Shown: piece by piece, positions 18,824-64,000 of the stretch
How the letters are laid out: every line of letters begins with the position of its first letter
Position numbering within the stretch: the stretch's first letter is position 1
DNA from: Deinococcaceae bacterium
GTDB taxonomy: Bacteria; Deinococcota; Deinococci; Deinococcales; Deinococcaceae
Direction of reading: 5' to 3'
DNA: 64,000 nucleotides
Assembly (NCBI GenBank): GCA_046327935.1
Contig: JAXLXL010000001.1
Coordinates: 1,152,386 to 1,216,385, forward strand
The notes under the pieces: generated by a model
Seen by the model: only the letters and a program-made list of their open reading frames with translations
What the model was told of the DNA's origin: nothing
The model's database searches: none
Made by a program: the position numbers and the translations under genes

Positions 18824-19696
18824 CACAACAAAAGCCAATCGGCAGACAGGATCAGCTTTTGGGTTTATCCAATGCCGTGTGCCTTCTTTGATGCCACTGC
18901 TGATGGGTTTTGGTGTTGGGTCACTCTGTTCCGTGTTTTGTGATGGACCGAGTGCGATGCATACCCACAGAAAAGCTGGCAATACTGCTGTGATTTGCAT
19001 TGCCAAAATGTACCCAGAGCGTAATTTTAGAGCAATCTATATTATTTTTAGATATCTTAGAGAGTGTATGAACCTGTCTGAAATCTAAGATGCTTAGACT
19101 GGATATTGCGTCTCTTTCGAGGCCCTTTTGGGTCTTTTTAACTAGAGAAATACCAGTGAGGGAAATCATGGGGCATACTGTTTCATTTAGAACCATTATC
19201 AAGTATATGGAAGATGGCATTGATCATTTCTTCTAGGGATACGAGAATCAATGGTCAGTCAAGCAGGTGTAAAGATGGCGTACAAGTTATACTACGGCAT
19301 ATTTTATAATTATTGGGAATTTTTGAGAGCTTAATAAAAGTAGTTTCAAAAAGTTTCTTTTTCTATGAATATCGCTTTCTAAATTTCAAGGAAATTAGGG
19401 AATTTCCCGTAAGGTATTGTTGTTTCTAAGTTGTATGTGTTTACACAAAATGAAGAAAAGAAGTACCATGCATTCCTGCGGCCTCTTTTATGAAAATACC
19501 ATTCGTTATATTTTTAAACTCTTCTTTTTCTGGGATCTAGGCTGTGATTTACTGTCATATACAAGGCTGATCACACTGCATTTAAAAATAAAATATCCTA
19601 AAAGTAGATGAACTTGCCGTAAAACGCAGTCTGTTATATGTCCTTATTATATTTCCTCCCTGGATAAATTTATACAGACTCTAATTGATGTGAATT

Positions 19697-20248
19697 TCAT
19701 TGCTCTATTTGCTCAAATCGTTCACTTCTATTGAGTTTTTCAAGTGCTTCTTTGCAAGAATCTGCAACGAAATTAAGTTTTCTATCGACACTTGCGAATA
19801 CCCTACCCATATCATCAATCAAAAGCACAACCATTCCACACTCGTCGACACCAACTGGACACAGACGGCGTTGAATCATACACTCATCTTCTTCTAATCT
19901 AAATTCAACATAGTGATCTGCCGCGTGTAGAACGTCGAATTTGTATCTCTTCTGGGTATTGACGTTTTTACCTGGAAAATCAACAGTTAAATAATTGTAA
20001 GAACATGCAAATTTTATCGCAAATTCATTAAAATAAACACCGAGCGAAGATAATTTATGGGCAATTTCTGAAACATCAACACATCGATTGGCAGTCCATC
20101 CTGATTTATAAAGTGTCTCATCCAATGATGGCCAGACTTCTCTCCTATTCGCAATTTTTTGTCCCTTTAGTAAAAATTGAATTTCAGCCAGCTCTTGCTC
20201 AATTTCCTGTTGAAGCTGTGCTATCAAACGATTCCCTTCTGTATCCAT
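19697..20248 (-). CDS. Hypothetical protein encoded in a low-GC islet
   Basis: 183-aa ORF with much lower GC than its surroundings. No motif recognised. Confidence 0.4.
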   Translation of the reverse strand: MDTEGNRLIAQLQQEIEQELAEIQFLLKGQKIANRREVWPSLDETLYKSGWTANRCVDVSEIAHKLSSLGVYFNEFAIKFACSYNYLTVDFPGKNVNTQKRYKFDVLHAADHYVEFRLEEDECMIQRRLCPVGVDECGMVVLLIDDMGRVFASVDRKLNFVADSCKEALEKLNRSERFEQIEQ

Positions 20249-20811
20249 GGTGATCAGCTCCTTATGTATTCACGGGTTGTTCTGTTTTTAGTCTCTATAC
20301 AAAAAATTAGAGGTAGAAAAAGCTTTATTCATAGAATAGACTTCTTTCGAAACCGAATATTGAAGAACCCAAAGCGATGAGAGGCATGTTCTCTACGTAA
20401 ATTGAACAGTCGTTGAGCCATTGTTGAACCGGTGGATGGGTTGACTTTCACACGCACAGCAATTTCCTTTGTTTTTTGGATCTGCAGTCAACGAAAACTC
20501 AGATCTGAGGGTGTCTTCAGCACAAAAATACGTGATGGATGGAGAGATTTCGTCATTTTTTCGATATTCTAGGGATCAAAAATAGCATGTGGATCTACAT
20601 TATCGGTGCTCAAAATTCTTCATTCTTCGTCGTTTAAAAATTTTCTTTATGGTTCTGTTTGAGGTTCGAAAGAAGTCTATTGAAATCAGGGGGATGAACC
20701 ATTACGTCGTTTCCCCTCAGAGATAGTCTAAAGAACTTATAACCGTCTTGCAATCCTTCTTCAACGTCTTGCTCACAAGATATAGCACATACTTGGTCAG
20801 AGCGGCACCTC

Positions 20812-21936
20812 CTAGGGCGTCGGGTGATCCATACCAACGGTGACTTGGGTTTGTTTGGGGAGAACCAAGGTGACCCACTGATCCGGATAATTGGGGTATT
20901 GGACGAGCAGGACGTAGTCGCCCGGTTGTGCGTCGGGCAGATCGAGTGTACCCGGAATGGTGCCCAGAATATCGCCAGTCTTGAGGCTGCTCAACTTCGG
21001 GGATTGGGCCACCAGGACGCGGGCGGGTCCAGGTAATGGACGCCCATTTTTTTCCAGAGTGAATGCGACTGTGCAGCATTTTGGGGTCGACTTCGAAATG
21101 GGTTCACCTCTAGGTATTTGGGTAACCGCGAACCACAGCGCCAGAGACGCGATTCCGGATAGGATGGATATGTATGCCCAATGGTACAGTGTTTTTGGTT
21201 TTGGGGATGGGGTGGAAGGCTGGATTTTTGGGGGGATTTGCCACATGCGATCCCGTTGCTCCGGTAAATCTTCAGCGGGTTCTGAAAGCATGCGAAGGCC
21301 TTCGCCCAATTCACCAACGGGTTCTTGTTCTGGGTTTTGGGTCTCTGCATCTTGGGTTTCGGTGTCTTCAAGATGGGAATCCACGGGCACACGATCGGAT
21401 TCTGCGAAATGGGGCGTTTCCGAATGGCGCTCAAGGGGTTGCCACAATGGGTTTAGGCTTTGGGCCGATTTCGAGGCCAGTTCCTCTAACCGGTCACACA
21501 GTTGGGAAAACACATACTCGTCGGTTTCGTGGGAGGGAATGGCGACCCAAGGCAAACCGGTCCCACTGATCAGAAGGGAGGTTCCATTCCACCAGATGTG
21601 ATGTGCGGCCAATCCGCCGTGTGGATGCCCATGTGCCCGAAGGTAATTCAGTGCCTGTCGTCCCTGTGCGCGCACTTCGGCCACAATGCTCTCGTGTGGG
21701 TGATGGAGCGAGAAAAACCCCATCGGAAGGTCTTCGATAAGGTAATGCTGCGCCCCTTGATATCCCGCTTCGAGAGGGGAGGCCAGGTTGGGATGGTTCA
21801 ATTCGAGTTTTCGCAGTGGACGTGCTGACGTGTAGATCAAGACGGGCATGCCTGTGATCCGATCGATCCCATAGGTCATCGAAATCTCCCCAGAGAAAAT
21901 CTCTTTGTCTGCGACGTACTGGCCAAAAAACCTCAC
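20812..21936 (-). CDS. Membrane-anchored protein with degenerate kinase-like N-terminal domain
   Basis: N-terminus resembles protein-kinase subdomains (PVLIYTS, HPNL, YLIEDL) but lacks the HRD/DFG catalytic motifs. Acidic linker, one TM helix (ISILSGIASLALWFAV), then a C-terminal extracytoplasmic domain. Confidence 0.5.
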   Translation of the reverse strand: MRFFGQYVADKEIFSGEISMTYGIDRITGMPVLIYTSARPLRKLELNHPNLASPLEAGYQGAQHYLIEDLPMGFFSLHHPHESIVAEVRAQGRQALNYLRAHGHPHGGLAAHHIWWNGTSLLISGTGLPWVAIPSHETDEYVFSQLCDRLEELASKSAQSLNPLWQPLERHSETPHFAESDRVPVDSHLEDTETQDAETQNPEQEPVGELGEGLRMLSEPAEDLPEQRDRMWQIPPKIQPSTPSPKPKTLYHWAYISILSGIASLALWFAVTQIPRGEPISKSTPKCCTVAFTLEKNGRPLPGPARVLVAQSPKLSSLKTGDILGTIPGTLDLPDAQPGDYVLLVQYPNYPDQWVTLVLPKQTQVTVGMDHPTP

Positions 21937-33210: not shown

Positions 33211-33631
33211 TCGGTATACCCCAGGGAAACCAAAGTCCCAGGGCACCAGTGAGGCATACAGAACCTCAACCGCTGTTACTGGCCTCGAAGGTTCTTTGAA
33301 ATTCTAGGGGAAACATGTGATGTGTGTATGTGAGAAATGGCCTAGAGAGTGTCCTGCAAATATTTGTTGGGTTTATTTTGAATTGGAGATGGTGTTGAGG
33401 GAGGTGACAGCTGAGGATACCTGCGGTTGGTTCAAACATTCCTTTTGGAAAAGATCATGGACCACTGGATTGGGCGTGGCTGGTTTTCTAAAGGGTCTAA
33501 TTTGAGATGAAAAAACGTTGCTGTATGATGTGCAGAACGAAATTGAGATGAATTTGAAAGATGCGATTTCCGCCTTCAGTCTTTGAGGTTTCATCCATTG
33601 AAATGGCATTTTACAGCGGGTTTCATAATTA

Positions 33632-34165
33632 TTAGGAATTAACAAAGGACATAAAATGCTTTTTATATCCTTCTATATTTTCAGGAGTTACAGCCTCTAC
33701 GCATTCTTGAATGATATTTTCTATGTTATCTATTGTTTTACTTGGATATCTTCTTATTCCATTCTTTATTTTCGAAATCGATTCTTCTATTGGATTCAAT
33801 TCTGGACTATAGGGAGGTATATATAGTATTTCTATTCCATTCTCTTCAAATAAATCTTTTACAGATTTCGTTTTATGTACGCTTAAATTATCCATTACTA
33901 TTTTTCTAATACCAATCTTTTTGATTTCTTCGCAAAATATCTCTATATATTTTAAAAATACGTCAGTATTCATTGTTCCATCAATTATAAACGTGCACAC
34001 CATTTTCATATGTAGAATGAGTATTACATTTCTCTTTTTCCTTCTTTTTGATCTATTTATTTTGCAATATAGTCTTTTTTTATGACTCCATCCATAGAGG
34101 GTTTCACAATCTATATGTACGCCAAATTCATCTAAAAATCCAATTTCATTTAAATCACTTTTCAA
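33632..34165 (-). CDS. IS630 transposase DDE catalytic part (OrfB)
   Basis: DNLSVHKT...YIPPYSPELNPIEE DDE motif region. The frame is open upstream to the A8 tract, +1 relative to OrfA. Confidence 0.8.
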   Translation of the reverse strand: MKSDLNEIGFLDEFGVHIDCETLYGWSHKKRLYCKINRSKRRKKRNVILILHMKMVCTFIIDGTMNTDVFLKYIEIFCEEIKKIGIRKIVMDNLSVHKTKSVKDLFEENGIEILYIPPYSPELNPIEESISKIKNGIRRYPSKTIDNIENIIQECVEAVTPENIEGYKKHFMSFVNS

Positions 34166-34217
34166 AATCTCTTCAATAAATGCCTCTCTTTTTATTATAT
34201 TTGATGGTGTTTCTTTT

Positions 34218-34580
34218 TCAAGTGCGATATAAGTTTTTTTTATACTTTATCCCCGCACGTTGAAACGCTCTATACATTGTCGCTTTTTTCACGGTCACAC
34301 CATACATTTTCTCCCATTCTTGACACGCTTTTTCTAAGGTAATATCCGGCATACTTTGTACCATTGCTCTTAGATTTTCAAAGTCTGCAATATCTATACG
34401 GGGTGGCTTTTTAGTTCCTCTTTTTTTAGGTTCCAATACATTGTTGTCATCAAGCTGCAAGTATCGTCCAACAGCCGAGGAAGAAACATTATATATTTCT
34501 GCAACCTCTTTTATTGTGTATCCTTCATAGTATTTTTCAACTATTCTTTTTCTAAGATCTAAACTATAAGTTACTGGCAT
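34218..34580 (-). CDS. IS630 transposase N-terminal HTH part (OrfA)
   Basis: HTH of the IS630/Tc1 family. Ends at a T8/A8 tract. Confidence 0.8.
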   Translation of the reverse strand: MPVTYSLDLRKRIVEKYYEGYTIKEVAEIYNVSSSAVGRYLQLDDNNVLEPKKRGTKKPPRIDIADFENLRAMVQSMPDITLEKACQEWEKMYGVTVKKATMYRAFQRAGIKYKKNLYRT

Positions 34581-34727
34581 ACATAGATTTTACCACATTA
34601 CATTCAAAAATAAAATATCCCCAAAATTAATAAACTTGCTGTAACGGCCAAAATAATGTACCTTTTTAATTCTTCATCTTGCAAACTGGTGTATCGATCT
34701 TACTTTGATCCGAAATTTGATTTACGG

Positions 34728-36035: not shown

Positions 36036-36713
36036 TTAGAGTCCAAAGCGCGTCCAACCTTCGGGCAACAGGCCCAGAAAAAATCGGGAGAGTTCCACAA
36101 ATTGACCCGTTGCGATCAAGATGCCCACAACCACGAGAAGAACACCGCCGCATTTTTCAATGGTTCCCGTGTAGCGCGACATCCACCTCAGGTTCATATT
36201 GCGCCACAACAGTGCCGTCAGCAAAAAGGGAATGCCCAAACCCAGAGCGTACAGGGTGAGTAGAAGAACGCCTTGTTTGAGTTGGCCTTGTGTCGTGGCG
36301 AGACTCAAAATACTGCCCAGCATGGGGCCAATGCACGGTGTCCATCCCAAGGCAAACGCCGCGCCCAGGGCAATGGGACCGTAGTCGGAGGCTTTTTGGA
36401 GGCTCATTCGGTGGTCTTGTGTGAGAAAAGGAATGCGCAAAATGCCCAACAGGTTGAGGCCGAAGCACACGATCAGAATGCCGCTCATCGGGGTGAGCCA
36501 ATACAGTTGAGACGTCAGGAAATGGCCCAATGCACTGGCGCTGGCGCCCAGAGCAATGAAAACCAAACTGAATCCCAGGACAAACCCGAGCGCGCGAAGG
36601 CCGGTTTTTTGTCCTCCCAAAACACCCAAGTACGAAGGCACGAGGGGCAACACACAGGGAGACAAAAAAGAGAGCACACCGGCAAATAGAGCGACACTGA
36701 AAGAGGCATCCAC
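36036..36713 (-). CDS. ccdA: Cytochrome c-type biogenesis thiol-disulfide transporter CcdA (DsbD-core family)
   Basis: LSPCVLPLVP and WTPCIGP paired-cysteine TM motifs. GTG start. Confidence 0.8.
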   Translation of the reverse strand: MDASFSVALFAGVLSFLSPCVLPLVPSYLGVLGGQKTGLRALGFVLGFSLVFIALGASASALGHFLTSQLYWLTPMSGILIVCFGLNLLGILRIPFLTQDHRMSLQKASDYGPIALGAAFALGWTPCIGPMLGSILSLATTQGQLKQGVLLLTLYALGLGIPFLLTALLWRNMNLRWMSRYTGTIEKCGGVLLVVVGILIATGQFVELSRFFLGLLPEGWTRFGL

Positions 36714-38136
36714 AACACTTCATTCTAACGCCAGTTGGACGTCTTTTTTGAGAGCGAAAAAGCGACTCACCCAACAGGGCCAACAGCGTGGCAAGGGATC
36801 CCAAGCCGAACATATCTCCAAAAGCCACAAAGGGTGTCCAGATTTTTTGTCCACTGATTGCCATAAGCGAGGCATTTTGGCCCGGTAGCATTTCTGTTAG
36901 GGGATTGCCCAAAGGGTCGTAAGCTGCACTGGGTCCCGACTGGGACGCGTGAATGACGTAGCGTCCCGTTGATACCGCCCGAAACCGACTGACATCGCGG
37001 TGCAGTTTGGGTATCGGCGTTCCCTGGGCAAACGTGGTGTTGGTGAGCATGACCAATAGGTCGCTTTGGGGGGCCAATTCTCGAGACAGCTGTTCCGAGA
37101 GCGTATCCCAGCAAATTTGGATGCCCAGTAAGAATCCAGCCACCTTGGGAAGACCTTGTGCTTTTGCGGCCAGGATATCCGACTCAAAAAAAGGCGCAGG
37201 AACCCTCTTGTTGTATGCGACGCTCAAACTGTGTGTGTCCCACAAAAAAGCGCTGTTGTACAGACGTTTTGACAGCGCTGTACGGTGATATCCACCCGCC
37301 AATACGGGTGGCAGATGCTCAAATCCCGCGAGGATATCTGCATACACCTGTGGGTCCGACGCATCTGCCGGTATGGACGATTCGGGCCATAAAATCAATT
37401 GGGCGTGCATCTGGGCTGCATATTTGGAGAGTTTTCGGTAGCGTTTGATCAGGTTTCTGCGCGTTTCGGGCCACAAATAGGCTTTTCGGTGTTCTTCTGG
37501 TGCGATTGCCCCTTGGACAACCGCAAGTCTGAGCTGTTTCTGGATTGGGGCTTTCTTTGTCTGTGAGATTGCTTGTGGCAAACATGTGGCCACCACCAGA
37601 AGACCCAATCCCAACAGCATAGGTTGAATTTTTCGGGTACGCACACCCTGGTACACGCAACCATTGAACACCAGAACGAGCCATGCGACACCGTGAACGC
37701 CACTCCAAAAGGCCGCTTTGAGCAGTGGAGAATCGGCTTGTGCATAGCCAATCGAAATGGGATTGGACCACGATCCGAAGTTGCCGAGTGCGTTTAGGGT
37801 TTCACATGCCAGCCAAAGCAGCGCAAACGCCCAAGCCGTCTGCATTTTTTCCCGAAAGAAGACGACACCCAATCCAACCAGGCCGTAGCCCAAACCGAGG
37901 GCCAAAATCAACAGGGCCATGAGGGTGGGTTGCAGGTGAAATGCCCCACCGTAAGCCATCACCCAGATGGGTAAGGACGCGCAGTAGGTGAGGTAAAATC
38001 CCATTCTGAGGCTTTGCGTTTTTTCCAGTGCCCAGAGCAGCGGAAGAAAGGCGATCCAGGCAAGATAGGGACATGTGACAGATCCTGCAAGCAGTGTCCC
38101 AGAAAGCCATGGTGCAATCCACTGACTTGGTTTCAT
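36157..38136 (-). CDS. lnt: Apolipoprotein N-acyltransferase Lnt, with 3' end apparently frameshifted
   Basis: N-terminal polytopic domain plus CN-hydrolase domain with catalytic E (LILWPESS), K (YNKRVPAPF) and C (IQICWDTL). The genuine C-terminus (hydrophobic helix then RSQKRR) lies at about 36700. The ORF runs a further 180 aa out of frame across ccdA. Confidence 0.7.
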   Translation of the reverse strand: MKPSQWIAPWLSGTLLAGSVTCPYLAWIAFLPLLWALEKTQSLRMGFYLTYCASLPIWVMAYGGAFHLQPTLMALLILALGLGYGLVGLGVVFFREKMQTAWAFALLWLACETLNALGNFGSWSNPISIGYAQADSPLLKAAFWSGVHGVAWLVLVFNGCVYQGVRTRKIQPMLLGLGLLVVATCLPQAISQTKKAPIQKQLRLAVVQGAIAPEEHRKAYLWPETRRNLIKRYRKLSKYAAQMHAQLILWPESSIPADASDPQVYADILAGFEHLPPVLAGGYHRTALSKRLYNSAFLWDTHSLSVAYNKRVPAPFFESDILAAKAQGLPKVAGFLLGIQICWDTLSEQLSRELAPQSDLLVMLTNTTFAQGTPIPKLHRDVSRFRAVSTGRYVIHASQSGPSAAYDPLGNPLTEMLPGQNASLMAISGQKIWTPFVAFGDMFGLGSLATLLALLGESLFRSQKRRPTGVRMKCCGCLFQCRSICRCALFFVSLCVAPRAFVLGCFGRTKNRPSRARVCPGIQFGFHCSGRQRQCIGPFPDVSTVLAHPDERHSDRVLRPQPVGHFAHSFSHTRPPNEPPKSLRLRSHCPGRGVCLGMDTVHWPHAGQYFESRHDTRPTQTRRSSTHPVRSGFGHSLFADGTVVAQYEPEVDVALHGNH

Positions 38137-39137
38137 AGGGATTCAAGGCCATCCATGCTCTGCGCGGCTTTGATGGTTTTTTTGGAACCGGTTTTGAGGT
38201 TAAGTATCGTTAGGTCCTGACCACCCACTTGGCTTCCGACGTAGATTTGGTCTTTATGCACGACAATCTGATCGGAAGAACTGATCGTCTGTGAAAAAGA
38301 AAACAGCTTCTTTGGACTGAATGTTTTAAGGTCGGCGAAAAAGACTGTTTTTCCATCTTCCGATAAAAAATACAATCCTTTTTCATTCATGTGAAATATT
38401 TCGTACCCGTAAATACCCTTTGGTAGAAGTTTCTTACTTTTTTCTTCTAAATTCAAGTCCATTCTGGAAAGATAAAAATTTTTATCTTTTTGAATTTCTC
38501 TATTCACAGCATACAAATCACCTTTAAATTCATATATGCTTCCTATTGACCTACCTGGAAATACTTTCAATTTTGTCGGCTTATTTGACCTTTCATCGAT
38601 CTTGATGATCCCTATTGATCCATCCTCCATGTTTATTGTTTGGTAATAGCTCCCCTTTATTGAAAGATATGATCGAGTCCTCTTTAAGCCACTGTCAATT
38701 TGAGGGAAATACTGTTTAAGGTTGATTACAGTTGCTTTCCCATTCTGGATGACTGCAACTTTGGGACCTGTGGCACAGCCGACAAAGACTTTGCCCGTTG
38801 TTGGACTGACACTCGGGTGAACACCTTGAAATCCTGGAATAAAGTAATCTTTGACGGCATTGCTCTTGAGATCAATGCAAGAAATTGTCTCTGTTTCTTG
38901 CGTACTTTTTGGGCGTGCGTAGGGATTGTAGGCCACACCGGTGATCCAAAGGCAATGGGAATCGACTGCAGCGCCTTGGGTGAGTTTGATTCTGGAATGG
39001 CGAATGGTACGAATGAGACGGCCTTGTGCGTCAAACCACTTGAAGGCAGACTGATCCATTGCAGCGTCGTCTTGCCAATTCACCACATCCCGAACCAAGA
39101 CAGTTGGAGTTCTGTGAGAATCTGTATGGACATTCAT
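38133..39137 (-). CDS. Beta-propeller-like protein, paralog 2 (no signal peptide)
   Basis: Shares a near-identical roughly 165-aa N-terminal block and a 45-aa C-terminal block with the upstream paralog. The central part is divergent and AT-rich. YVTN/PQQ-like blade motifs (GKVFVGCATGPKVAVI). Confidence 0.6.
   Translation of the reverse strand: MNVHTDSHRTPTVLVRDVVNWQDDAAMDQSAFKWFDAQGRLIRTIRHSRIKLTQGAAVDSHCLWITGVAYNPYARPKSTQETETISCIDLKSNAVKDYFIPGFQGVHPSVSPTTGKVFVGCATGPKVAVIQNGKATVINLKQYFPQIDSGLKRTRSYLSIKGSYYQTINMEDGSIGIIKIDERSNKPTKLKVFPGRSIGSIYEFKGDLYAVNREIQKDKNFYLSRMDLNLEEKSKKLLPKGIYGYEIFHMNEKGLYFLSEDGKTVFFADLKTFSPKKLFSFSQTISSSDQIVVHKDQIYVGSQVGGQDLTILNLKTGSKKTIKAAQSMDGLESL
38612..39110. repeat. 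Conserved 5' block of the paralog pair (copy in paralog 2). Its partner is at about 39607-40102.
   Basis: About 0.5 kb at roughly 97% identity between the two genes, GC-normal. Antisense ORFs 38700-39221 and 39695-40156 are mirror images of this repeat. Confidence 0.7.
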
Positions 39138-40192
39138 AGGGATTCAAGGCCATCCATGCTCTGCGCAGCTTTGATGGTTTTTTTGGAACCGGTTTTGAGG
39201 TCAAGTATCGTTAGGTCCTGACCACCCACTTGGCTTCCCACATAAAGCTTGTCTTCCTTGATGAATGTTTTGTAGTACTCTGCATTTTGTTTTTCAAAGA
39301 TAATCCTTTTGAATTTAAAACCATTCAAACTCACCTCAATAAAATACCGCTCATCTTTTAGAAATACAATTTTTTCTTTGTTCAAGAAAATGATGCTTCT
39401 TGGATCTATTGAGTTCGGAATTTTGATCTTCCTTATTGGTTTTATACGGCTGTCTAGAATACCTATCCATGCATCTGATGGATTTTTTATAGATTGAACA
39501 ATTTCATAAAGTTGATCGGTGTTGTGGATGCTTCGTACAGAGTACCCATTTATTGATTGTATTGCTATGGGTTTCTCTGTTTTTTCGTCTATCTGTACAA
39601 GACCTATCCCTCCATTTTTCATATCCACGGTCTGTATATAGTAATGAGAGGACATGTGAATAAATCCGTGCGTGGATTTTAAGCCACTGTCAATTTGATG
39701 GAAATACTGTTTAAGGTTGATTACAGTTGCTTTCCCATTCTGGATGACTGCAACTTTGGGACCTGTGGCACAGCCGACAAAGACTTTGCCCGTTGTTGGA
39801 CTGACACTCGGGTGAACACCTTGAAATCCTGGAATAAAGTAATCTTTGACGGCAGTGCTCTTGAGATCAATGCAAGAAATTGTCTCTGTTTCTTGCGTAC
39901 TTTTGGGGCGTGCGTATGGATTGTAGGCCACACCGGTGATCCAAAGGCAATGGGAATCGACTGCAGCGCCTTGGGTGAGTTTGATTCTGGGATGGCGAAT
40001 GGTACGAATGAGACGGCCTTGTGCGTCAAACCACTTGAAGGAAGACTGATCCATTGCAGCGTCGTCTTGCCAATTCACCACATCCCGAACCAAGACGGTG
40101 GCTGTTTGTGGCATTGGCGGGACTTGACCCGCCGATGTGGGTGTAAGGGCACTTAGGGTGAGACAGAGTGAAAAAACATTTTTGTTGGGCAT
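39134..40192 (-). CDS. Beta-propeller-like secreted protein, paralog 1 (signal peptide)
   Basis: MPNKNVFSLCLTLSALTPTSAG signal peptide. Start ATG 40192. Confidence 0.6.
   Translation of the reverse strand: MPNKNVFSLCLTLSALTPTSAGQVPPMPQTATVLVRDVVNWQDDAAMDQSSFKWFDAQGRLIRTIRHPRIKLTQGAAVDSHCLWITGVAYNPYARPKSTQETETISCIDLKSTAVKDYFIPGFQGVHPSVSPTTGKVFVGCATGPKVAVIQNGKATVINLKQYFHQIDSGLKSTHGFIHMSSHYYIQTVDMKNGGIGLVQIDEKTEKPIAIQSINGYSVRSIHNTDQLYEIVQSIKNPSDAWIGILDSRIKPIRKIKIPNSIDPRSIIFLNKEKIVFLKDERYFIEVSLNGFKFKRIIFEKQNAEYYKTFIKEDKLYVGSQVGGQDLTILDLKTGSKKTIKAAQSMDGLESL
39607..40102. repeat. Conserved 5' block of the paralog pair (copy in paralog 1)
   Basis: See partner block at 38612-39110. Confidence 0.7.
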
Positions 40193-40199
40193 GTTGTCC

Positions 40200-41540
40200 T
40201 CAGGTGCGTTTGAAATCGGCACGCAGAATCAGTTTTCCCTCTTTGTATCCGTTCCAGAGGTGATTGGGCAAAATCGTGCCAAACCACCGAATGGCGTTGG
40301 TTTCCATGATGTTTTTTCCAGCACCGTGGTACCAAGCACCCCACACCAACAAAGAGCAGTAAAACCCTTCGTATTCAGCGTCTTCGTTGTATTTATCCTC
40401 TTGTGGAGACACCAGTAGGCTGTACGGTTTGCCAATTTGTTTTCTCGCCCACTGGACTGCCCAACGTCCCGAGGTTGAATAGACGTCCAAGTAGGCTTGG
40501 CGTTTATGGTAATAGCCTGTGACTATGGCTGTTCTTTCCTCCCTCACTTTTTTTCCCATTCTGGGTGCTTCTGTGAATCGATTGTCTCCCGTTTTTATGG
40601 CTGCGTGTTGCCACCAATCTAGAAGCGATGCCGAGTAGCTCCACACCGTGTCGTAATCTTGAAATCCCAAAAAGATGCCACCCTCTTGAATGCAAGAGCC
40701 TTCTGGGCAACTGGTTGCCGCCTGGCTGTTCATCAGGCTTTTGGGCACGACGTCTTGTGGATTGGATGCAATGGCCACCCAAGGTGGTGGACTTCCGGGA
40801 GGTTGCGCCACGATGGTTTTGTAGTACGAGTTTATGGCTCCGTACGGATCAAAGATGAGAACATCGTTGAGTGGAAGAAAGCCGTCTTTGTACCATTGGT
40901 ATTCTGGAGATCCGTATTCTGAGACGTATTTGAATTGATCGGAAAAAGGGTAGAGCCAAGGGTTTTTCTGGATTTGCTCTAGGAAGTACCAAAAAGGCAT
41001 GGCGTCTGTCCGACTGGTGTTCGGATTTTTGAGCTCCACAAGGGCGTGTCTGGGATCTTTACCGGGTTTGACATCATCTCCAATGATTTTGATGGTGTCT
41101 CTGCGGTCGCGGATACTGGCCGTGATGTGGTAATAGCCTTGAGAAGATGAACGTCTGGGAGACATCCAAATGCTGTAGGGACTCAAGGTCGCCACCGCAT
41201 ATTCTGAATTGAGATCCTCAGAACCCTGAGAAACCGGCTGTGGAACACCTGTGCGTGCCTCACCATAGCCATCGTAGTATGTGGCTTGCCAAGAAACCTC
41301 GCTGGCATAACAACCTTCACCGCTGACCCTTGCGACAAATCTGAAATCTTCGGCGCCTGGATAGAGGACCTGATTGCCGTCGACGATTTTGATCGTGCAG
41401 GCTGGAGAAGACGGTGAAGGTGATGGAGAAGGGCTGGGTGTACGGTGGGGTGAACATCCAAAGCAGGCAAGGCTGTTTGATGTGATCGAAAAAGCCAGGA
41501 AAATACCCCAGAATGCAAAACAACGGCGATCAGATTTCAT
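40200..41540 (-). CDS. Secreted protein with Pro/Ser-rich linker and Cys-containing C-terminal hydrolase-like domain
   Basis: Signal peptide MKSDRRCFAFWGIFLAFSITSNSLA, (SP)n linker, and a Trp/Tyr-rich C-terminal domain with FYCSLLVWGAWYHG. AGGAG RBS. Confidence 0.55.
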   Translation of the reverse strand: MKSDRRCFAFWGIFLAFSITSNSLACFGCSPHRTPSPSPSPSPSSPACTIKIVDGNQVLYPGAEDFRFVARVSGEGCYASEVSWQATYYDGYGEARTGVPQPVSQGSEDLNSEYAVATLSPYSIWMSPRRSSSQGYYHITASIRDRRDTIKIIGDDVKPGKDPRHALVELKNPNTSRTDAMPFWYFLEQIQKNPWLYPFSDQFKYVSEYGSPEYQWYKDGFLPLNDVLIFDPYGAINSYYKTIVAQPPGSPPPWVAIASNPQDVVPKSLMNSQAATSCPEGSCIQEGGIFLGFQDYDTVWSYSASLLDWWQHAAIKTGDNRFTEAPRMGKKVREERTAIVTGYYHKRQAYLDVYSTSGRWAVQWARKQIGKPYSLLVSPQEDKYNEDAEYEGFYCSLLVWGAWYHGAGKNIMETNAIRWFGTILPNHLWNGYKEGKLILRADFKRT

Positions 41541-42322
41541 CTCAAGGCTCCTACTTTGATCCATGAACCCAACGGCTGGCTTTGGGCAGAAAGTTTTTGT
41601 GAAGAAAGTGCATAGACATCCAATTGTGTGTCCAGAACATACTGCTTTTGTGGATCCTCGTTTGGTAGATACATCCAGAGGGTCTTGTCTGGATGTTTGA
41701 GAGAGAGGGCTTCTCCATCTGTTTGAGGAACAAACACCCGCTTCCAGAGGTATCGACTGGCAAAATCTCCACGGTTGGATGCCCGGTCAAAACGGGCCCT
41801 CATGTCGTTCATCAGCAAAAAGGATCCGCTGTCTGGGTTGCGATTCCTCGGTTTTTGGCCAAATTGGGTATTGACGGAGACATCCAGAAGTTCCCAGCGA
41901 TCGAGGTCGACCAAGAACATAAGCGTCCAATCGAAGGTTTTGTGCGACAATGGCGCACCGAGAATGAGGAGGCCTTTCATCGTCCCACTTTTGGACGTTC
42001 CAATGTCATCCAGACGAACCACTTCAGAGTTTTCCAGGACAAACATTTTGTCCATGCTGGGAAACGCTTCCCCCAAAGGTTTTCCAAAAGTTGCAGCCTC
42101 CAAAGTGCGCTCGGTTTCATCCAACAGCGCCTGTGGAATGGGTCCTGGTGTGCCCCTCAGAAGCTGTTCTATGGCCGCTTCCGTCAGTTTCGCAAAGGTG
42201 TTTGACCGCTCTGTCATCCCTGTTTGTCCTGTGATGTCGGTTGGCTTCTCGGAAACCAACTGACAGGCTCCCGTCATCGAGAGCAAACTTAGGGCAATGC
42301 CATACTTGAGAATGTTCTGCAT
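41537..42322 (-). CDS. Lipoprotein of unknown function
   Basis: Lipobox LSMTGAC. First gene of a four-gene minus-strand operon (ATGA overlap with the next gene). Confidence 0.55.
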   Translation of the reverse strand: MQNILKYGIALSLLSMTGACQLVSEKPTDITGQTGMTERSNTFAKLTEAAIEQLLRGTPGPIPQALLDETERTLEAATFGKPLGEAFPSMDKMFVLENSEVVRLDDIGTSKSGTMKGLLILGAPLSHKTFDWTLMFLVDLDRWELLDVSVNTQFGQKPRNRNPDSGSFLLMNDMRARFDRASNRGDFASRYLWKRVFVPQTDGEALSLKHPDKTLWMYLPNEDPQKQYVLDTQLDVYALSSQKLSAQSQPLGSWIKVGALR

Positions 42323-42412: not shown

Positions 42413-43675
42413 ATGGAAAACCCGTCCCGGTTGGGGTATTTCGTGGTCGATCTCGCGCAGGGGAAAGCCACTTTGGACGGAACACCTGTGCCTTGCGGCA
42501 AAAAATGGTTGGAGGTGTGTGCGCTTTTGGCAGATCACTGGAATGCAGATCGGTGGGTGACACGCGAGGACATTGCCCACCTGCCGGGTTGGCGGGGCAC
42601 GTCAATGGCCAGTTTGGGTGCGGCGCTGTATCGGAAGAGCCGAGAACTTTCCATACAGGGTTTTCCGCTTTTTGTTCATCCACAAAGGGGCCAAACACGC
42701 GCCTTGAAGTTGAATGCCGAGTGTGTTTGCGAGGTGTCGGTGGTGAGGGTCCCGATTGTGCAGATCCGTGAACCGGTCGGTCCGTTTTTTCCAGAGCACT
42801 GTGAATTGATTTTGGCAGAGTGTCTTTTTGAAAGGGGTGATTATCAGCGTGTGTTGGCTTTGGTGGCGCCCTTTTTGGAGTCGGCTTCTGTTGTTGACCG
42901 TGTCAGGGCCCATCTGTTCGACGTTTGGGTGAGGGCTTTGACCCTTCCAGAAGAATTGTCGGTTGCTCGGTTTCGAAAGCTGCTGACTGAGTTGGATGCT
43001 GAACCTGTGGCGTGTGCAGCCATCTTGAAAGCCAGAATCTGGATTCAACTGGGACGCTTGGCCCTGCTCAGAGGTGACCTGTTGGAAATGCAAAGAACCT
43101 ACAGTCAGGCCGAGTTTTTCTTGGAACCTGGTGATTTGCGAGAGTGGGTGTCGATTTGGGCGGGTCAAGCCTTGGTGCTCGAGAAAAAGGGTGAGTGGTC
43201 GTCCGCCATGGCCCGGCAGCAACAGGCACTCGATTTGGCGATCAAGGCCAAATGGACTTGGGGAATTCACGTCCAGTACGCAAACATGGGCCGAATTCTG
43301 TTGGGGGCACACCTTCAGGGGCAAGGTGATTTTTTGGATGCCGCCAAGACCGCATTGGTTCAGGGCTTGGAGTTGGCTCTTGCCTTTGGATTTGGTGGGC
43401 AAACCAACCTTTTGGACAGCCTCTTTCGTGTATGGGTGACCGAGCAGGCCTTCGATGGGGCGTGGGATTTTCTCGATCAAATAGAGGCGTTGGTGGAGAC
43501 CTGGTCGTACACGCCGGGTCGAATCCATTTGGCTGAAATGCGCGCAGATATGCATCGGGCTCGTGGAGAGAGCGAACATGCGCGTTCTCAACTCAGGCTT
43601 GCGCTGCAGTGGGCCAGGCATATTGGAGATTCTTCTTCTGCACAGCGAATTCGTGAACAGTTGGCACAATATTAG
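42413..43675 (+). CDS. Transcriptional regulator, OmpR-type winged helix plus TPR-like helical domain (SARP/AfsR-like architecture)
   Basis: N-terminal wHTH resembling trans_reg_C (WVTREDIAHLPGW...LGAALYRKSRELS). C-terminal helical repeats. Confidence 0.5.
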   Translation: MENPSRLGYFVVDLAQGKATLDGTPVPCGKKWLEVCALLADHWNADRWVTREDIAHLPGWRGTSMASLGAALYRKSRELSIQGFPLFVHPQRGQTRALKLNAECVCEVSVVRVPIVQIREPVGPFFPEHCELILAECLFERGDYQRVLALVAPFLESASVVDRVRAHLFDVWVRALTLPEELSVARFRKLLTELDAEPVACAAILKARIWIQLGRLALLRGDLLEMQRTYSQAEFFLEPGDLREWVSIWAGQALVLEKKGEWSSAMARQQQALDLAIKAKWTWGIHVQYANMGRILLGAHLQGQGDFLDAAKTALVQGLELALAFGFGGQTNLLDSLFRVWVTEQAFDGAWDFLDQIEALVETWSYTPGRIHLAEMRADMHRARGESEHARSQLRLALQWARHIGDSSSAQRIREQLAQY

Positions 43676-44034
43676 GGCAAGGCGTCTTTTGCGAGCCAGG
43701 TTCGCCACTGTGTCTCGGCGTCCCCAATACTCAAGTGTTTTCCGAAGCGTACCAACGGCAATATCAGCAAGTCGGGGTGTTCCTGAATGTGCTCAATCAG
43801 GCGTTCCTCGCTCAGGCGCATGTATTCTAGGCCCAGTTTCGAGTAGCTTTTGCTCGAGGTGTCGAGGAGGTTTTGCAGGCTCTTTTCCTTTTGTACAAAG
43901 CGACCGAGTTCCCCTTTGGCAATGGGTCGGTCGAGCAGATCGACAAAGTGAACAAAAATACGGCGTTCCTTGAAAAATCGCTCTGCCTTGCGGGTAACCG
44001 AGGATTTCTTGAGGCCAAAAATTTGAACGTCCAT
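43672..44034 (-). CDS. ArsC/Spx/YffB-family thioredoxin-fold protein lacking the catalytic Cys
   Basis: MDVQIFGLKKSSVTRKAERFFKERRI matches the family fold, but the CxxC/Cys position is Ser. Confidence 0.5.
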   Translation of the reverse strand: MDVQIFGLKKSSVTRKAERFFKERRIFVHFVDLLDRPIAKGELGRFVQKEKSLQNLLDTSSKSYSKLGLEYMRLSEERLIEHIQEHPDLLILPLVRFGKHLSIGDAETQWRTWLAKDALP

Positions 44035-44064
44035 GGTCTTTCCAGAATACGTCACAATGGATGG

Positions 44065-59330: not shown

Positions 59331-59573
59331 ATGCTTAAGATGTGTGGTTGGATTGTTTTGTCAGCGCTTCTGTTGTCTTCCTGTAATTTGTCTTCTCCTA
59401 CTTTTACAGAATCCAAAGCGGAAAACCTAGGAAATTATAAAGATTCTGAGGCCCTCGGGTCTTTCAGGCTTTCTCTAGGAGAGTCAGATGAAACACTTTC
59501 TATTCAAGATACAACCTCCATTTCGGGGGCGTCTCTTTCTTATACAGCGGGTTTCATAATTATTAGGAATTAA
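59331..59573 (+). pseudogene. Lipoprotein gene truncated by an IS630 insertion
   Basis: MLKMCGWIVLSALLLSSC (lipobox). The ORF runs into the IS left end at 59545 and terminates inside the IS. Confidence 0.45.
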
Positions 59574-60096
59574 CAAAGGACATAAAATGCTTTTTATATC
59601 CTTCTATATTTTCAGGAGTTACAGCCTCTACGCATTCTTGAATGATATTTTCTATGTTATCTATTGTTTTACTTGGATATCTTCTTATTCCATTCTTTAT
59701 TTTCGAAATCGATTCTTCTATTGGATTCAATTCTGGACTATAGGGAGGTATATATAGTATTTCTATTCCATTCTCTTTAAATAAATCTTTTACAGATTTC
59801 GTTTTATGTACGCTTAAATTATCCATTACTATTTTTCTAATACCAATCTTTTTGATTTCTTCGCAAAATATCTCTATATATTTTAAAAATACGTCAGTAT
59901 TCATTGTTCCATCAATTATAAACGTGCACACCATTTTCATATGTAGAATGAGTATTACATTTCTCTTTTTCCTTCTTTTTGATCTATTTATTTTGCAATA
60001 TAGTCTTTTTTTATGACTCCATCCATAGAGGGTTTCACAATCTATATGTACGCCAAATTCATCTAAAAATCCAATTTCATTTAAATCACTTTTCAA
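59563..60096 (-). CDS. IS630 transposase OrfB (copy 2)
   Basis: DDE domain with one substitution relative to copy 1. Confidence 0.8.
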   Translation of the reverse strand: MKSDLNEIGFLDEFGVHIDCETLYGWSHKKRLYCKINRSKRRKKRNVILILHMKMVCTFIIDGTMNTDVFLKYIEIFCEEIKKIGIRKIVMDNLSVHKTKSVKDLFKENGIEILYIPPYSPELNPIEESISKIKNGIRRYPSKTIDNIENIIQECVEAVTPENIEGYKKHFMSFVNS

Positions 60097-60148
60097 AATC
60101 TCTTCAATAAATGCCTCTCTTTTTATTATATTTGATGGTGTTTCTTTT

Positions 60149-60511
60149 TCAAGTGCGATATAAGTTTTTTTTATACTTTATCCCCGCACGTTGAAACGCT
60201 CTATACATTGTCGCTTTTTTCACGGTCACACCATACATTTTCTCCCATTCTTGACACGCTTTTTCTAAGGTAATATCCGGCATACTTTGTACCATTGCTC
60301 TTAGATTTTCAAAGTCTGCAATATCTATACGGGGTGGCTTTTTAGTTCCTCTTTTTTTAGGTTCCAATACATTGTTGTCATCAAGCTGCAAGTATCGTCC
60401 AACAGCCGAGGAAGAAACATTATATATTTCTGCAACCTCTTTTATTGTGTATCCTTCATAGTATTTTTCAACTATTCTTTTTCTAAGATCTAAACTATAA
60501 GTTACTGGCAT
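60149..60511 (-). CDS. IS630 transposase OrfA (copy 2)
   Basis: Identical to copy 1. Confidence 0.8.
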   Translation of the reverse strand: MPVTYSLDLRKRIVEKYYEGYTIKEVAEIYNVSSSAVGRYLQLDDNNVLEPKKRGTKKPPRIDIADFENLRAMVQSMPDITLEKACQEWEKMYGVTVKKATMYRAFQRAGIKYKKNLYRT

Positions 60512-60603
60512 ACATAGATTTTACCACATTACATTCAAAAATAAAATATCCCCAAAATTAATAAACTTGCTGTATCTCATCATCTTCCTTCGATGTAGGT
60601 GGG

Positions 60604-63024
60604 ATGCGCTACCTCTCATCGACATATCGGGTCAACCTCCCAAGCAGTCGCCTTCTCGATGGAATGACCTTTATTCCGACAGTAACCCCCAACACGCTTG
60701 GAAATACCTCTGTGTCTGGGCTGTTCTTGTGGAGTGCTTCCCAAAAAAGCATGTATCCCGTCTCGAATGCGACACTGCGTTCACAAATGGCACGCTCGGT
60801 CATGCCTACAGGCGGCCCAATGCGGCTTTATGGAGGAAGGGCACAGCTCGATCCCCAGTTTGGACCGAATTTTCAGGCCTTTTCCAGTGCAGATTTTAAC
60901 CTTCTGACTCAAAAAGGTGTGGTCAAGCCGGGTGCGCTGCCATTTGGATTCACAACCCATTATGTGGCATCCAGCTCAACGACGAACAGCATCCCGCCCC
61001 GCACGGTTTCCAAAGGCCATTATTTAACCGTCAGTGTTAAGTTTCCCCTACAAAGAACGCTCGATATCACGCCTTCGCGTATTGATTTAGAGGGAATTCT
61101 TGTTACCGGTATGGTCAAAACAGTCACAGAATCTCTGGAGGATCAGGCCAGAGGTGATCTAGGTGCGGCTGTTTTGAAACGCATCTCTGATCAAAAGGCG
61201 CAGATCCTCAACATTTTGCCAGGAAGCACGATCACATCAGCCCCTCCTGGGGTTGTGATGAACAAAATATGCCAAATTCCACTGACGTATGGCGGCAGTT
61301 CTGTCAGAAACAACACAACGGTATACCTGGTCAATCAAGCAGGAAAGGGCTTTCTGGGGATGCTTCCTGGATTCGCAGAGATCAAGGGAAACACCTCCAT
61401 CTCTGTCCGATTTGCCAGTGTTGAACCCGGATGCAATATCCTGGATCCACAAAACCCACAAAACCAATTTGCCATTTATGGTTCCCAAACGGGTCTTAGG
61501 TTGGCGAATTTCAATCCTGCCAACAGAGGGACTTTTTCTCAGAAGCCCCAAACATGGAATTATGTGCCTGCTCCAGGAGCGGAGTTTAAGCCTGGAGAAG
61601 AACTTGTGGTTACGGCCCTCGATCCCCATTATCCGCGTTCCTATGTGGCAAAATTTCGGGTTGAGAGTGCTCCAGAAAGCCAAATTGGTTTTGTGGCCAA
61701 TCCACTCATTGACATGGGATCTGGACCCAGCGATTTGAGATTGATTGACCTTAACCGAGATGGCGCAAAAGATATGGTCACCCTCCACAAGTCCGCTGGT
61801 TTGCTTGTGACACAACTTATTTCAAATGGAACACTTCAGTCTGCTCAGAAACTGTTGCTCCAAGGCACCCCAAACGCCCTGGATTTTGGTTTCATCAATG
61901 GCGACCTCAGTCCAGACATGGTTGTTGCCAACGATGGGCTTTCGTTTCCAGGTGTTCAGGTCTTGTTGGGTCAGGGCAATGGCAGCTTTAAGTACGATCA
62001 AGATGTCGATTTGGGAGGAATCAAACCCACCCGGGTCAAACTGGATGAATTCAACTTGAGCGAAGACGACCACCTGGATACCGACAACGTTCCCGTACAC
62101 AGCAAGTTTTTGCCTGACATTGCTTTTTTGAGCCCGGGTTCTGCCTCCATTGGCATTTCACCTCGGAGCCAAGACAATGCAGCTTTCGAAGTTGCTCCGC
62201 TGCTCACAGTTCCAGTCTCCAATCAACCCGACACCACAACTTTTGGCTATGGCGATTTCAACTCAGATGGCCGTTACGATCTGGTGACCGGACATCCCAA
62301 TGGTTCTGTACGCATCACGTGGGGGAAATTGGACGGTTCTTTTGCGCCGTTAAATGAGCAGGCCCTTTTGACGGTCGGTGGAAGTGATGTTCGAGACATA
62401 GAAGTGGCTGACCTCAATGGCGATTGCCTTGAAGAGATTTTGGTCGCCCACAACAACCCTCCTGGACTGACGGTATTTTGGCAACAACAGACGGAAGTGC
62501 CCATGGGCAGCAATTCCTGTCACAAGGGTGTCGGAGAATTCAATGCCCATACCTATACACTGAGTGGTTTGGTTCCAGACCGCATTCAATTCGTCGACAT
62601 TGACCAAAACGAAGGCGTGGACCTGGCTTTGGTTGACTCCTCAAATGGACGTGTGGGACTGTTGAAAAACACAACGATGTTTGATCTGTCTCACCCTGAA
62701 AACCAGCTGACTTCTCTTGGCGTCATTTCTGCAGGACCATCGTTGAGTGCGGTCGCCATCACAGACGTTACAGCTGATACTGTTCCAGACCTTCTTCTGG
62801 CCTATTCGGCCTCGGATGGATTGGGCCTTTTGAAGGGAAATGCTGTCGGATCGTTTGGTGTACAGGTGCCGGCCTATCCTGCTGGGTCGATGACCCAATC
62901 GTTGGCCTTGGGTGACCTCAATGGCGATGGTTACTTAGATTCAGTCTCTTCCGGTACCTCTGGCGGTCAAAATCAACTGGTTCTGTTGAAAGGTTCCACT
63001 GCGGGATTACAGCAAGTTTATTAA
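60604..63024 (+). CDS. FG-GAP/VCBS-repeat protein (integrin-alpha-like beta-propeller), bounded on both sides by IS copies
   Basis: Repeated D-x-[ND]-x-DG-x-x-D-hydrophobic motifs (DLNRDGAKDMVT, GDFNSDGRYDLVTG, DLNGDGYLDSVS). No signal peptide. The last 5 codons and the stop lie inside IS copy 3. Confidence 0.6.
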   Translation: MRYLSSTYRVNLPSSRLLDGMTFIPTVTPNTLGNTSVSGLFLWSASQKSMYPVSNATLRSQMARSVMPTGGPMRLYGGRAQLDPQFGPNFQAFSSADFNLLTQKGVVKPGALPFGFTTHYVASSSTTNSIPPRTVSKGHYLTVSVKFPLQRTLDITPSRIDLEGILVTGMVKTVTESLEDQARGDLGAAVLKRISDQKAQILNILPGSTITSAPPGVVMNKICQIPLTYGGSSVRNNTTVYLVNQAGKGFLGMLPGFAEIKGNTSISVRFASVEPGCNILDPQNPQNQFAIYGSQTGLRLANFNPANRGTFSQKPQTWNYVPAPGAEFKPGEELVVTALDPHYPRSYVAKFRVESAPESQIGFVANPLIDMGSGPSDLRLIDLNRDGAKDMVTLHKSAGLLVTQLISNGTLQSAQKLLLQGTPNALDFGFINGDLSPDMVVANDGLSFPGVQVLLGQGNGSFKYDQDVDLGGIKPTRVKLDEFNLSEDDHLDTDNVPVHSKFLPDIAFLSPGSASIGISPRSQDNAAFEVAPLLTVPVSNQPDTTTFGYGDFNSDGRYDLVTGHPNGSVRITWGKLDGSFAPLNEQALLTVGGSDVRDIEVADLNGDCLEEILVAHNNPPGLTVFWQQQTEVPMGSNSCHKGVGEFNAHTYTLSGLVPDRIQFVDIDQNEGVDLALVDSSNGRVGLLKNTTMFDLSHPENQLTSLGVISAGPSLSAVAITDVTADTVPDLLLAYSASDGLGLLKGNAVGSFGVQVPAYPAGSMTQSLALGDLNGDGYLDSVSSGTSGGQNQLVLLKGSTAGLQQVY

Positions 63025-63070
63025 TTTTGGGGATATTCTATTTTTGAATGTAATGTGGTAAAATCTATGT

Positions 63071-63433
63071 ATGCCAGTAACTTATAGTTTAGATCTTAGA
63101 AAAAGAATAGTTGAAAAATACTATGAAGGATACACAATAAAAGAGGTTGCAGAAATATATAATGTTTCTTCCTCGGCTGTTGGACGATACTTGCAGCTTG
63201 ATGACAACAATGTATTGGAACCTAAAAAAAGAGGAACTAAAAAGCCACCCCGTATAGATATTGCAGACTTTGAAAATCTAAGAGCAATGGTACAAAGTAT
63301 GCCGGATATTACCTTAGAAAAAGCGTGTCAAGAATGGGAGAAAATGTATGGTGTGACCGTGAAAAAAGCGACAATGTATAGAGCGTTTCAACGTGCGGGG
63401 ATAAAGTATAAAAAAAACTTATATCGCACTTGA
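63071..63433 (+). CDS. IS630 transposase OrfA (copy 3)
   Basis: Identical to the other copies. A8 tract at 63428-63435. Confidence 0.8.
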   Translation: MPVTYSLDLRKRIVEKYYEGYTIKEVAEIYNVSSSAVGRYLQLDDNNVLEPKKRGTKKPPRIDIADFENLRAMVQSMPDITLEKACQEWEKMYGVTVKKATMYRAFQRAGIKYKKNLYRT

Positions 63434-63485
63434 AAAAGAAACACCATCAAATATAATAAAAAGAGAGGCATTTATTGAAGAGATT

Positions 63486-64000
63486 TTGAAAAGTGATTTA
63501 AATGAAATTGGATTTTTAGATGAATTTGGCGTACATATAGATTGTGAAACCCTCTATGGATGGAGTCATAAAAAAAGACTATATTGCAAAATAAATAGAT
63601 CAAAAAGAAGGAAAAAGAGAAATGTAATACTCATTCTACATATGAAAATGGTGTGCACGTTTATAATTGATGGAACAATGAATACTGACGTATTTTTAAA
63701 ATATATAGAGATATTTTGCGAAGAAATCAAAAAGATTGGTATTAGAAAAATAGTAATGGATAATTTAAGCGTACATAAAACGAAATCTGTAAAAGATTTA
63801 TTTGAAGAGAATGGAATAGAAATACTATATATACCTCCCTATAGTCCAGAATTGAATCCAATAGAAGAATCGATTTCGAAAATAAAGAATGGAATAAGAA
63901 GATATCCAAGTAAAACAATAGATAACATAGAAAATATCATTCAAGAATGCGTAGAGGCTGTAACTCCTGAAAATATAGAAGGATATAAAAAGCATTTTAT
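63486..64000 (+). CDS. IS630 transposase OrfB (copy 3, truncated by window end)
   Basis: MKSDLNEIGF... identical to copy 1 as far as visible. Confidence 0.7.
   Translation, partial: MKSDLNEIGFLDEFGVHIDCETLYGWSHKKRLYCKINRSKRRKKRNVILILHMKMVCTFIIDGTMNTDVFLKYIEIFCEEIKKIGIRKIVMDNLSVHKTKSVKDLFEENGIEILYIPPYSPELNPIEESISKIKNGIRRYPSKTIDNIENIIQECVEAVTPENIEGYKKHF

Follow-up and report, generated by a model that had tools for sequence, protein, structure and literature searches.

How does a genome come to carry, side by side, two genes that are nearly identical at both ends and strongly divergent in between? The question is raised by a gene pair in a 64,000-nucleotide (nt) stretch of DNA, referred to here as the window, which is part of a 1.46-Mb contig of a metagenome-assembled genome (MAG) labeled "Deinococcaceae bacterium." The two genes (locus tags U0Z75_05635 and U0Z75_05640) are designated Z-A and Z-B, or simply A and B; they are predicted to encode beta-propeller proteins and lie immediately ahead of lnt, the gene for apolipoprotein N-acyltransferase, in the gene order X-Y-Z-lnt. 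As judged from the sequence comparisons described below, the pair is a mosaic that requires recombination in conserved flanks around two ancient core alleles. We think it probable, if not strongly so, that an allele capture or displacement, later than the split from the lineage of a sister strain (contig L016), stacked an A-type gene in front of a B-type gene.

Two adjacent genes with near-identical ends and divergent cores

Gene A (39134..40192, on the minus strand, as are gene B, all parts of both genes, and lnt) encodes a predicted exported seven-bladed beta-propeller of 352 amino acids (aa) when read from the ATG at 40192, the start used by NCBI. Its open frame begins farther upstream, with a GTG at 40222, giving an open reading frame (ORF) of 39134-40222. 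The gene lies directly behind gene Y and has a GAGGA ribosome-binding site 4 nt 5' of its start. The signal-peptide coding part (40130..40192) specifies the N-terminal hydrophobic leader MPNKNVFSLCLTLSALTPTSA, with the cleavage site, read by eye, placed before GQ. Gene B (38133..39137) encodes 334 aa without this leader, and its protein begins MNVHTDSHRTPTVLV, approximately at the start of mature A. At 39134-39137 an ATGA joins the stop codon of A to the ATG of B, and a second ATGA at 38133-38136 does the same for the stop of B and the start of lnt. The first-pass annotation of this DNA had described a signal peptide in the first gene only, a second gene starting near the mature-protein boundary and the overlap of the A stop with the B start, and in all three respects it was correct.

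A blastn comparison of the region with the window delimits the sequences shared by the two genes. The conserved 5' blocks (39678..40099 in A and 38683..39104 in B) are 422 bp long, 98.3% identical and form direct repeats 573 bp apart. The conserved 3' blocks (39133..39255 in A and 38132..38254 in B) measure 123 bp at 93.5% identity; in A this block comprises the putative blade 7, the stop codon and one further base, and in B its stop overlaps the lnt start (ATGA). Because six of the eight mismatches in the 3' block fall within its first 17 nt, the final 106 bp, with two mismatches, are ∼98% identical. Conserved blocks at both ends, which had been put at ∼0.5 kb with ∼97% identity and at ∼140 bp, are thus real, with the extents given here.

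Between these blocks lie core A (39256..39677, 422 bp) and core B (38255..38682, 428 bp). A codon alignment guided by the proteins puts their identity at 44.4%, with mismatches at 56% of aligned positions, and their lengths differ by 6 bp; nonsynonymous divergence (dN) is 0.83, and synonymous divergence (dS) is saturated. The earlier description of the cores as AT-rich and strongly divergent holds, but they do not "differ completely": they remain homologous, with 24% aa identity, the same strand pattern, and the residues conserved in the family kept in both. The contrast between flanks and cores is extreme (Fisher p = 6e-86), and divergence is not uniform along the genes, the flanks having a dS of 0.04 against saturation in the cores. 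Both cores form uninterrupted coding sequence, and their openness is not due to chance: when cores were shuffled, at most 5e-5 of trials were free of stops. An origin of the cores by a diversity-generating retroelement (DGR) or hypermutation was rejected in view of the 56% difference, the 6-bp length gap and the lack of an extra core repeat in the window. A Pfam scan of the named ORFs of the cluster and a few neighbors gave no reverse-transcriptase match.

The unit duplicated here begins immediately behind the signal peptide and closes one base beyond the stop codon, and CTATGAA terminates the 3' blocks of both A and B. Because the unit extends one base past the stop, the start codon of B is a duplicated copy of the lnt start codon, and B therefore has the upstream translation-coupling context of lnt. 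With a full ORF and this coupling signal kept, B is not obviously silent and is probably translated. Between the duplicated ATGAA and the 5' block of B lies a 28-nt junction (39105..39132), a filler with no similarity to the A leader, lnt, the rest of the window or L016. The possibility that these 28 nt are a diverged copy of the sequence preceding the block in A was ruled out by alignment against shuffled controls (p 0.73-0.87). Promoter and terminator scans stayed at chance level.

An uncharacterized family with a predicted propeller fold

Pfam contains no family matching A or B at E ≤ 0.1, and the sole NCBIfam match of A and B was to BamB (E 0.048; 12 bits, where the cut-off is 423). HMMER, run exhaustively over 1.84 billion representative proteins, yielded 10 matches, of which seven are full-length homologues of 343-383 aa (E values from 6e-33 to 5e-6). 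Residues C92, W94, C117, D127 and Y194 are common to all seven and are also found in A, where C92, W94, C117 and D127 fall in the 5' block. Every full-length member of the Z family that was retrieved has an N-terminal hydrophobic leader. No third copy of the Z gene is present in this genome or in the window, and a word-indexed search of 5.8 billion protein clusters found only the two window proteins, P0001 and P0002, to which a profile added P0009. Searches of the PDB sequences with Y and Z profiles returned nothing significant. Scans of genome-contig and metagenome-contig collections, to which the MAG and its kin do not belong, found no relatives of Z, and for Lnt only remote matches, in Clostridia MAGs.

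The structure predicted by AlphaFold2 from a nine-sequence alignment has a predicted local distance difference test score (pLDDT) of 80.6 and a predicted template-modeling score (pTM) of 0.78, compared with a pLDDT of 38.5 for a single-sequence run, and consists of seven groups of four strands. Foldseek matched this model to BtuG, YVTN, BamB and the methylamine dehydrogenase (MADH) heavy chain with E values to 4e-11 and template-modeling (TM) scores of 0.55-0.6. Since sequence identity to these fold matches is just 8-13%, they assign the fold only and not a function. Structure prediction and fold searches together support the model of Z as a seven-bladed beta-propeller of the YncE/MADH-like type, in agreement with the earlier beta-propeller call. 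When the blocks are mapped to blades with the DSSP string of the model, the 5' block (aa 42-182 in A) would hold blades 1 and 2 and the first three strands of blade 3, the core would begin with the last strand of blade 3 and continue through blades 4-6, and the 3' block would correspond to blade 7.

Base composition of the cores

The GC content is 0.338 in each core, compared with 0.48 in the blocks and ∼0.50-0.53 in neighboring genes. All three codon positions fall in the cores, to values nearly equal between them (0.36-0.38, 0.28-0.31 and 0.35), and the AT-richness of the cores acts at the nucleotide level. This drop is particular to the present lineage: in other homologues the core equivalent is only 1-6 points lower than the 5' block, and P0008 has no drop.

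Two further observations concern composition. The gene of the Z homologue P0007 (L008, 1009-2076; GCA_025359705.1), which is not followed by lnt, has a GC of 0.34 from end to end, against 0.48 for the locus, and looks like a whole-gene compositional outlier. Core B contains a perfect 22-nt palindrome, AAAGATAAAAATTTTTATCTTT, at window 38468-38489, which may be due to chance in AT-rich sequence.

A sister strain with a single Z gene

Contig L016, from Logan run SRR13208899, was found through P0012, a protein of 354 aa in the 90% cluster of gene B. Along ∼14 kb it is colinear with the window (94.9% identity). In its single Z gene the signal peptide of A and the 5' block lead into a B-type core, behind which come the 3' block and the ATGA coupling to lnt. 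The signal-peptide part is 97.6% identical at the nt level, although there it stands ahead of a B-type core, and core B is orthologous to the L016 core (92.3% nt identity). Relative to L016, the window has in addition core A, a 3' block, the filler and a 5' block. The expressed position, directly behind the signal peptide, is thus occupied by core A in the window and by core B in L016. Variation among strains, on which the first-pass annotation had made its reading depend, is therefore present at this locus.

The relative ages of the parts can be compared through their synonymous divergence. The two flanks of A and B are of the same age, with a dS of 0.043 for the 5' block and 0.042 for the 3' block. 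B and L016 are separated by a dS of 0.138 in the 5' block and 0.219 in the core, and the window and L016 strains by 0.117 in lnt and 0.258 in ccmA. Because the value of ∼0.04 lies below the window-L016 divergence, the last common ancestor of the A and B flanks is more recent than the split of the strains. The cores are of another order: cores A and B share 24% aa identity, about as little as the 16-22% that either shows to homologues of distant lineages, whose 5' block is 21-35% identical to that of A. A dN/dS of 0.21 between the B core and L016 indicates purifying selection on this core between the two strains. The intact ORF of B is no proof of selection since the event, because at a dS of ∼0.04 too few mutations are expected.

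A three-way comparison of the 5' blocks of A, B and L016 contains 20 variable sites. At 13 of these, A and B agree and L016 differs; A agrees with L016 at five, all at or before position 195, and B agrees with L016 at the remaining two, positions 245 and 401.

The locus in independent assemblies

Further Logan contigs (L017-L020) were reached through the cluster of gene Y. Contig L020 (SRR26348422) shows 100.000% identity to the window along 9,934 bp and stops at position 40067 of the window, which is position 33 of the 5' block. Position 3 of this block distinguishes A from B, and no further difference follows up to position 57. Logan contigs are built with k=31, and each 31-mer is held once (PMC12424806). 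Given that the only nearby difference between A and B is at position 3, position 33 is the last base of the last A-specific 31-mer, and a contig end at 40067 is what would be expected if the block also occurs in another left-hand context, different at position 3, as it does in copy B. The L016 contig runs through the same point unbroken, as expected of a single copy. The contigs retrieved via ccmA end short of the 3' block, and the independent assembly support concerns the left-hand side.

Contig L017, from a third strain (the same as that of L018 and L019; runs SRR29782974 and SRR26192755/42), is 96.0% identical to the window and 96.4% identical to L016, and it ends at the same base as L020. 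Its similarity to the window is 99.6% and 98.9% in stretches beside Z and 92-97% farther upstream; over the same stretches beside Z, L016 is 95.7% and 97.7% identical to the window. This pattern suggests that the L017 and window lineages have recently come to share the Z locus, probably including the tandem, by recombination.

Origin of the tandem

The course of events that we favor starts from a resident B-type gene like the one in L016. After the window and L016 lineages had split, an A-type allele from a close relative with near-identical flanks would have been joined ahead of this gene, one end of the join being homologous and the other illegitimate, with the 28-nt filler as its trace. Such a combined homologous and illegitimate join would be the reason why the resident B copy lost its signal peptide and gained a duplicated lnt start. 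The A-type copy, behind the promoter-proximal signal peptide, would now supply the exported protein, and the B-type copy, the orthologue of the only copy in L016, lies downstream and leaderless. We infer both the recombination mechanism and its direction. The event so described resembles homology-facilitated illegitimate recombination and the displacement known from Rhs, contact-dependent inhibition (CDI) and type VI secretion system (T6SS) loci.

However it arose, the tandem offers direct repeats of 422 bp and ∼106 bp as substrates for homologous recombination. A crossover in the 5' blocks would delete core A and leave exactly the L016-type gene, a crossover in the 3' blocks would delete core B and leave an A-only gene, and conversion over both flanks would swap the cores. 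As a displaced copy, B may serve as a reservoir or act as a cytoplasmic paralogue, or it may be a young relic.

Several points weigh against this account. The flanks are without an outgroup to set the direction of events, and the L016 form is also what a 5'-block deletion of an older tandem would give. The site pattern of L016, A-like up to position 195 and B-like at 245 and 401, fits a deletion crossover (p ∼0.05). A single-copy A-type donor was not found, core A being known from this strain only, and the tandem in L017 is deduced only from where its contig ends. Finally, capture gives no explanation for the same low GC in two cores otherwise unrelated. The switch from A-like to B-like sites was also considered as proof of a deletion crossover and was rejected as such: with seven informative sites, p ∼0.05 and no outgroup, it is a hint only.

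The strongest alternative, which we consider unlikely, is that A and B are old tandem paralogues in concerted evolution. The duplication would then be ancient, dating back to the divergence of the cores, both copies would be functional and specialized, their outer blades would have been homogenized again and again by gene conversion, and the single gene of L016 would be a secondary deletion through a crossover in the 5' blocks. In its favor, L016 has the structure that such a deletion would produce, with a single change from A-like to B-like among its informative sites; two of the three strain lineages sampled seem to carry the tandem, and both ORFs are intact. However, direct repeats of 422 bp at 98% identity placed 573 bp apart are unstable, and they would need to have persisted for as long as the divergence between lineages. 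At all other loci where a family member was seen, there is a single Z gene. The equal flank dS values (0.043 and 0.042) sit poorly with the separate conversion tracts that homogenization would need, B is without an export signal, unlike the full-length family members, and the near-identity of L017 to the window beside Z points to recent spread and not to deep ancestry.

A second alternative is programmed variation, in which B would be a silent cassette moved or copied at high frequency into the expression site, in the manner of pilE/pilS of Neisseria or vlsE of Borrelia. Those systems have many cassettes and frequent, measured non-reciprocal conversion. The present locus shares with them one expression site and a 5'-truncated, leaderless copy with conserved sequence on both sides of the variable core, and different strains have different cores at the expressed position. 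In contrast to them, it has a single extra copy, with no other family member in the genome; switching by deletion is irreversible; the coupling signal of lnt in B means that it would be translated and so not silent; no recombinase, DGR or repeat machinery is present at the locus; and no variants within the sample were seen, the reads not being open to examination. We therefore regard programmed variation as improbable. The cassette exchange by homologous recombination proposed in the first-pass annotation accordingly stands as far as the mosaic is concerned, but not as a programmed silent cassette.

An assembly artefact, in which the MAG assembler stitched the Z alleles of two co-existing strains in tandem, would suit a metagenomic source and the existence of allelic cores among strains but is very improbable, because the 28-nt A-to-B junction is unique and could not be created by an allelic bubble and because the k=31 assembly of a 100%-identical strain, L020, stops exactly at the last A-specific 31-mer.

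Gene neighborhood

The order X-Y-Z-lnt is found at L002, L003/L004, L011 and L016, and the ATGA coupling of Z to lnt is kept in four other loci. At L001 this coupling leads to an lnt homologue, and the contig is cut upstream; X-Y-Z-lnt was not seen in L008 and L009. X, Y and Z all stay below the cut-off of every Pfam and NCBIfam family, and X and Y are 35-43% identical across the distant lineages carrying the cluster. Gene X (41537..42322, minus strand), the first of the cluster, encodes a 261-aa lipoprotein with an invariant Cys20 in a lipobox-like context. Gene Y (40200..41540, minus strand) encodes a predicted secreted protein of ∼446 aa with His320 and Cys403 (FYCSLL), both invariant in six homologues. 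An operon with a lipoprotein and a Cys-containing secreted protein, as first described, is thus borne out. What lies behind the term "hydrolase-like" for Y is a sub-threshold match of residues 360-414 to the permuted papain-like Peptidase_C92 (PF05708; E 0.24, 11.9 bits against a cut-off of 27). Upstream of X, in divergent transcription, a gene for a 420-aa TPR-containing protein (42413..43675, plus strand) has a homologue at the same position in L002 and L016; its own TPR matches are weak, and the L002 homologue matches TPR_12 at 6e-9. It had been called a SARP-like regulator, but a Pfam scan detected TPR repeats only and no Trans_reg_C or BTAD domain.

The lnt gene (36700..38136), translationally coupled to Z by the ATGA, encodes the domains LNT_N (E 1.4e-13) and CN_hydrolase (E 5.4e-12), both of which pass their cut-offs. 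Its frame has no stop where the homology ends (∼aa 480) and continues for 180 more codons (window 36157-36713, minus strand), for a total ORF of 659 aa; an exact look-up of this ORF found nothing on record. The tail crosses a ccdA/DsbD_TM gene (36036-36713) in another frame, and the same is true in L016. Between the window and L016 the dN/dS is 5.2 in the frame of the lnt tail, compared with 0.12 in the ccdA frame, so that the tail is not a selected coding frame. Four JGI contigs have an identical Z protein, P0004, and differ in lnt: the gene is intact in L004 (4927-6387, 486 aa), is in pieces of 118 and 353 aa in L003 (7288-8748) and L005, and in L006 the contig ends after the 118-aa piece. 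The split form in L003, L005 and L006 may be a frameshift polymorphism in that population.

Farther from Z, an ArsC-family gene (window 43672-44055) lies between a DUF1175/NlpC_P60 gene and the TPR protein gene; it is present in the window and L020 and not in L016 or L017. An insertion sequence of the IS630 family, ∼1.04 kb long with a GC of 0.27-0.36, occurs three times in the window (33609-34643, 59540-60574 and 63007-64000) at 99.8-99.9% identity. One copy is inverted and cut by the window end; the two complete copies encode the transposase in two ORFs, a 120-aa helix-turn-helix part and a 177-aa DDE_3 part. L016 has other sequence at the site of the copy that adjoins ccmB in the window. 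A low-GC island (0.35-0.42) at window 19000-21000 includes a 183-aa ORF (19697-20248) with a GC of 0.38 and a third-codon-position GC of 0.28.

Relation to known systems

By analogy, the architecture of the Z pair appears closest to that of babA/babB, and it is also close to the displaced orphan modules of polymorphic-toxin loci. In the babA/babB/babC genes of Helicobacter pylori, near-identical ends surround a divergent middle, and intragenomic homologous recombination or gene conversion makes chimeras (PMC4552749). The Z pair is similar in that flanks of 98.3% and 98% identity enclose cores of 44% and in that different middles stand at the expressed position in different strains. The bab genes lie apart from one another, and each has a start, an export signal and phase-variable repeats of its own, whereas the Z copies are in tandem and B, without a signal peptide or an upstream region of its own, starts at a duplicated lnt ATG. 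The folds differ as well, a predicted propeller here and an adhesin/beta-barrel in bab.

In Rhs, CDI and T6SS loci, homology anchors the new allele at one end, the other end is joined illegitimately, and the resident is displaced downstream, 5'-truncated and still recombinable (PMC5361080). Like such orphan modules, B consists of the mature part only, lies behind a 28-nt filler and retains homology. Those loci, however, vary a C-terminal toxin tip and carry immunity genes. At the Z locus it is the internal blades 4-6 that vary, with a conserved C terminus, there is no toxin or immunity gene, and the next gene is lnt. Compared with YncE, BtuG and the amine-dehydrogenase heavy chain, to which identity is 8-13%, Z gives no sign of B12 binding or of a cofactor and is distinguished by its X-Y-Z-lnt context.

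Significance

No new mechanism of variation is revealed by this locus, since recombination-mosaic genes are already known as a kind. It would instead be a clean natural example of how an exported protein can come to have two ancient alleles stacked in tandem through homologous recombination and a single illegitimate join, with the displaced copy keeping its translational coupling by reuse of the start codon of the next gene. A more far-reaching reading, which we hold to be quite doubtful, sees in X-Y-Z-lnt an unrecognized envelope module with diversifying selection on propeller blades 4-6 and in the A/B tandem a functional two-state variation device with B as its reservoir, brought to or taken from the exported position by recombination. 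If true, this would be the first cassette-type surface variation described in Deinococcota and the first on internal beta-propeller blades.

For the family, the comparison of cores flags blades 4-6 of an uncharacterized lnt-linked propeller as its variable part, probably a selected surface and presumably the one in contact with a ligand, a partner or an enemy. For the organisms that carry it, the locus brings to attention a small, conserved and unannotated operon of lipoprotein X, putative permuted-papain enzyme Y, propeller Z and Lnt, which could be a lead for lipoprotein and envelope biology in poorly sampled lineages.

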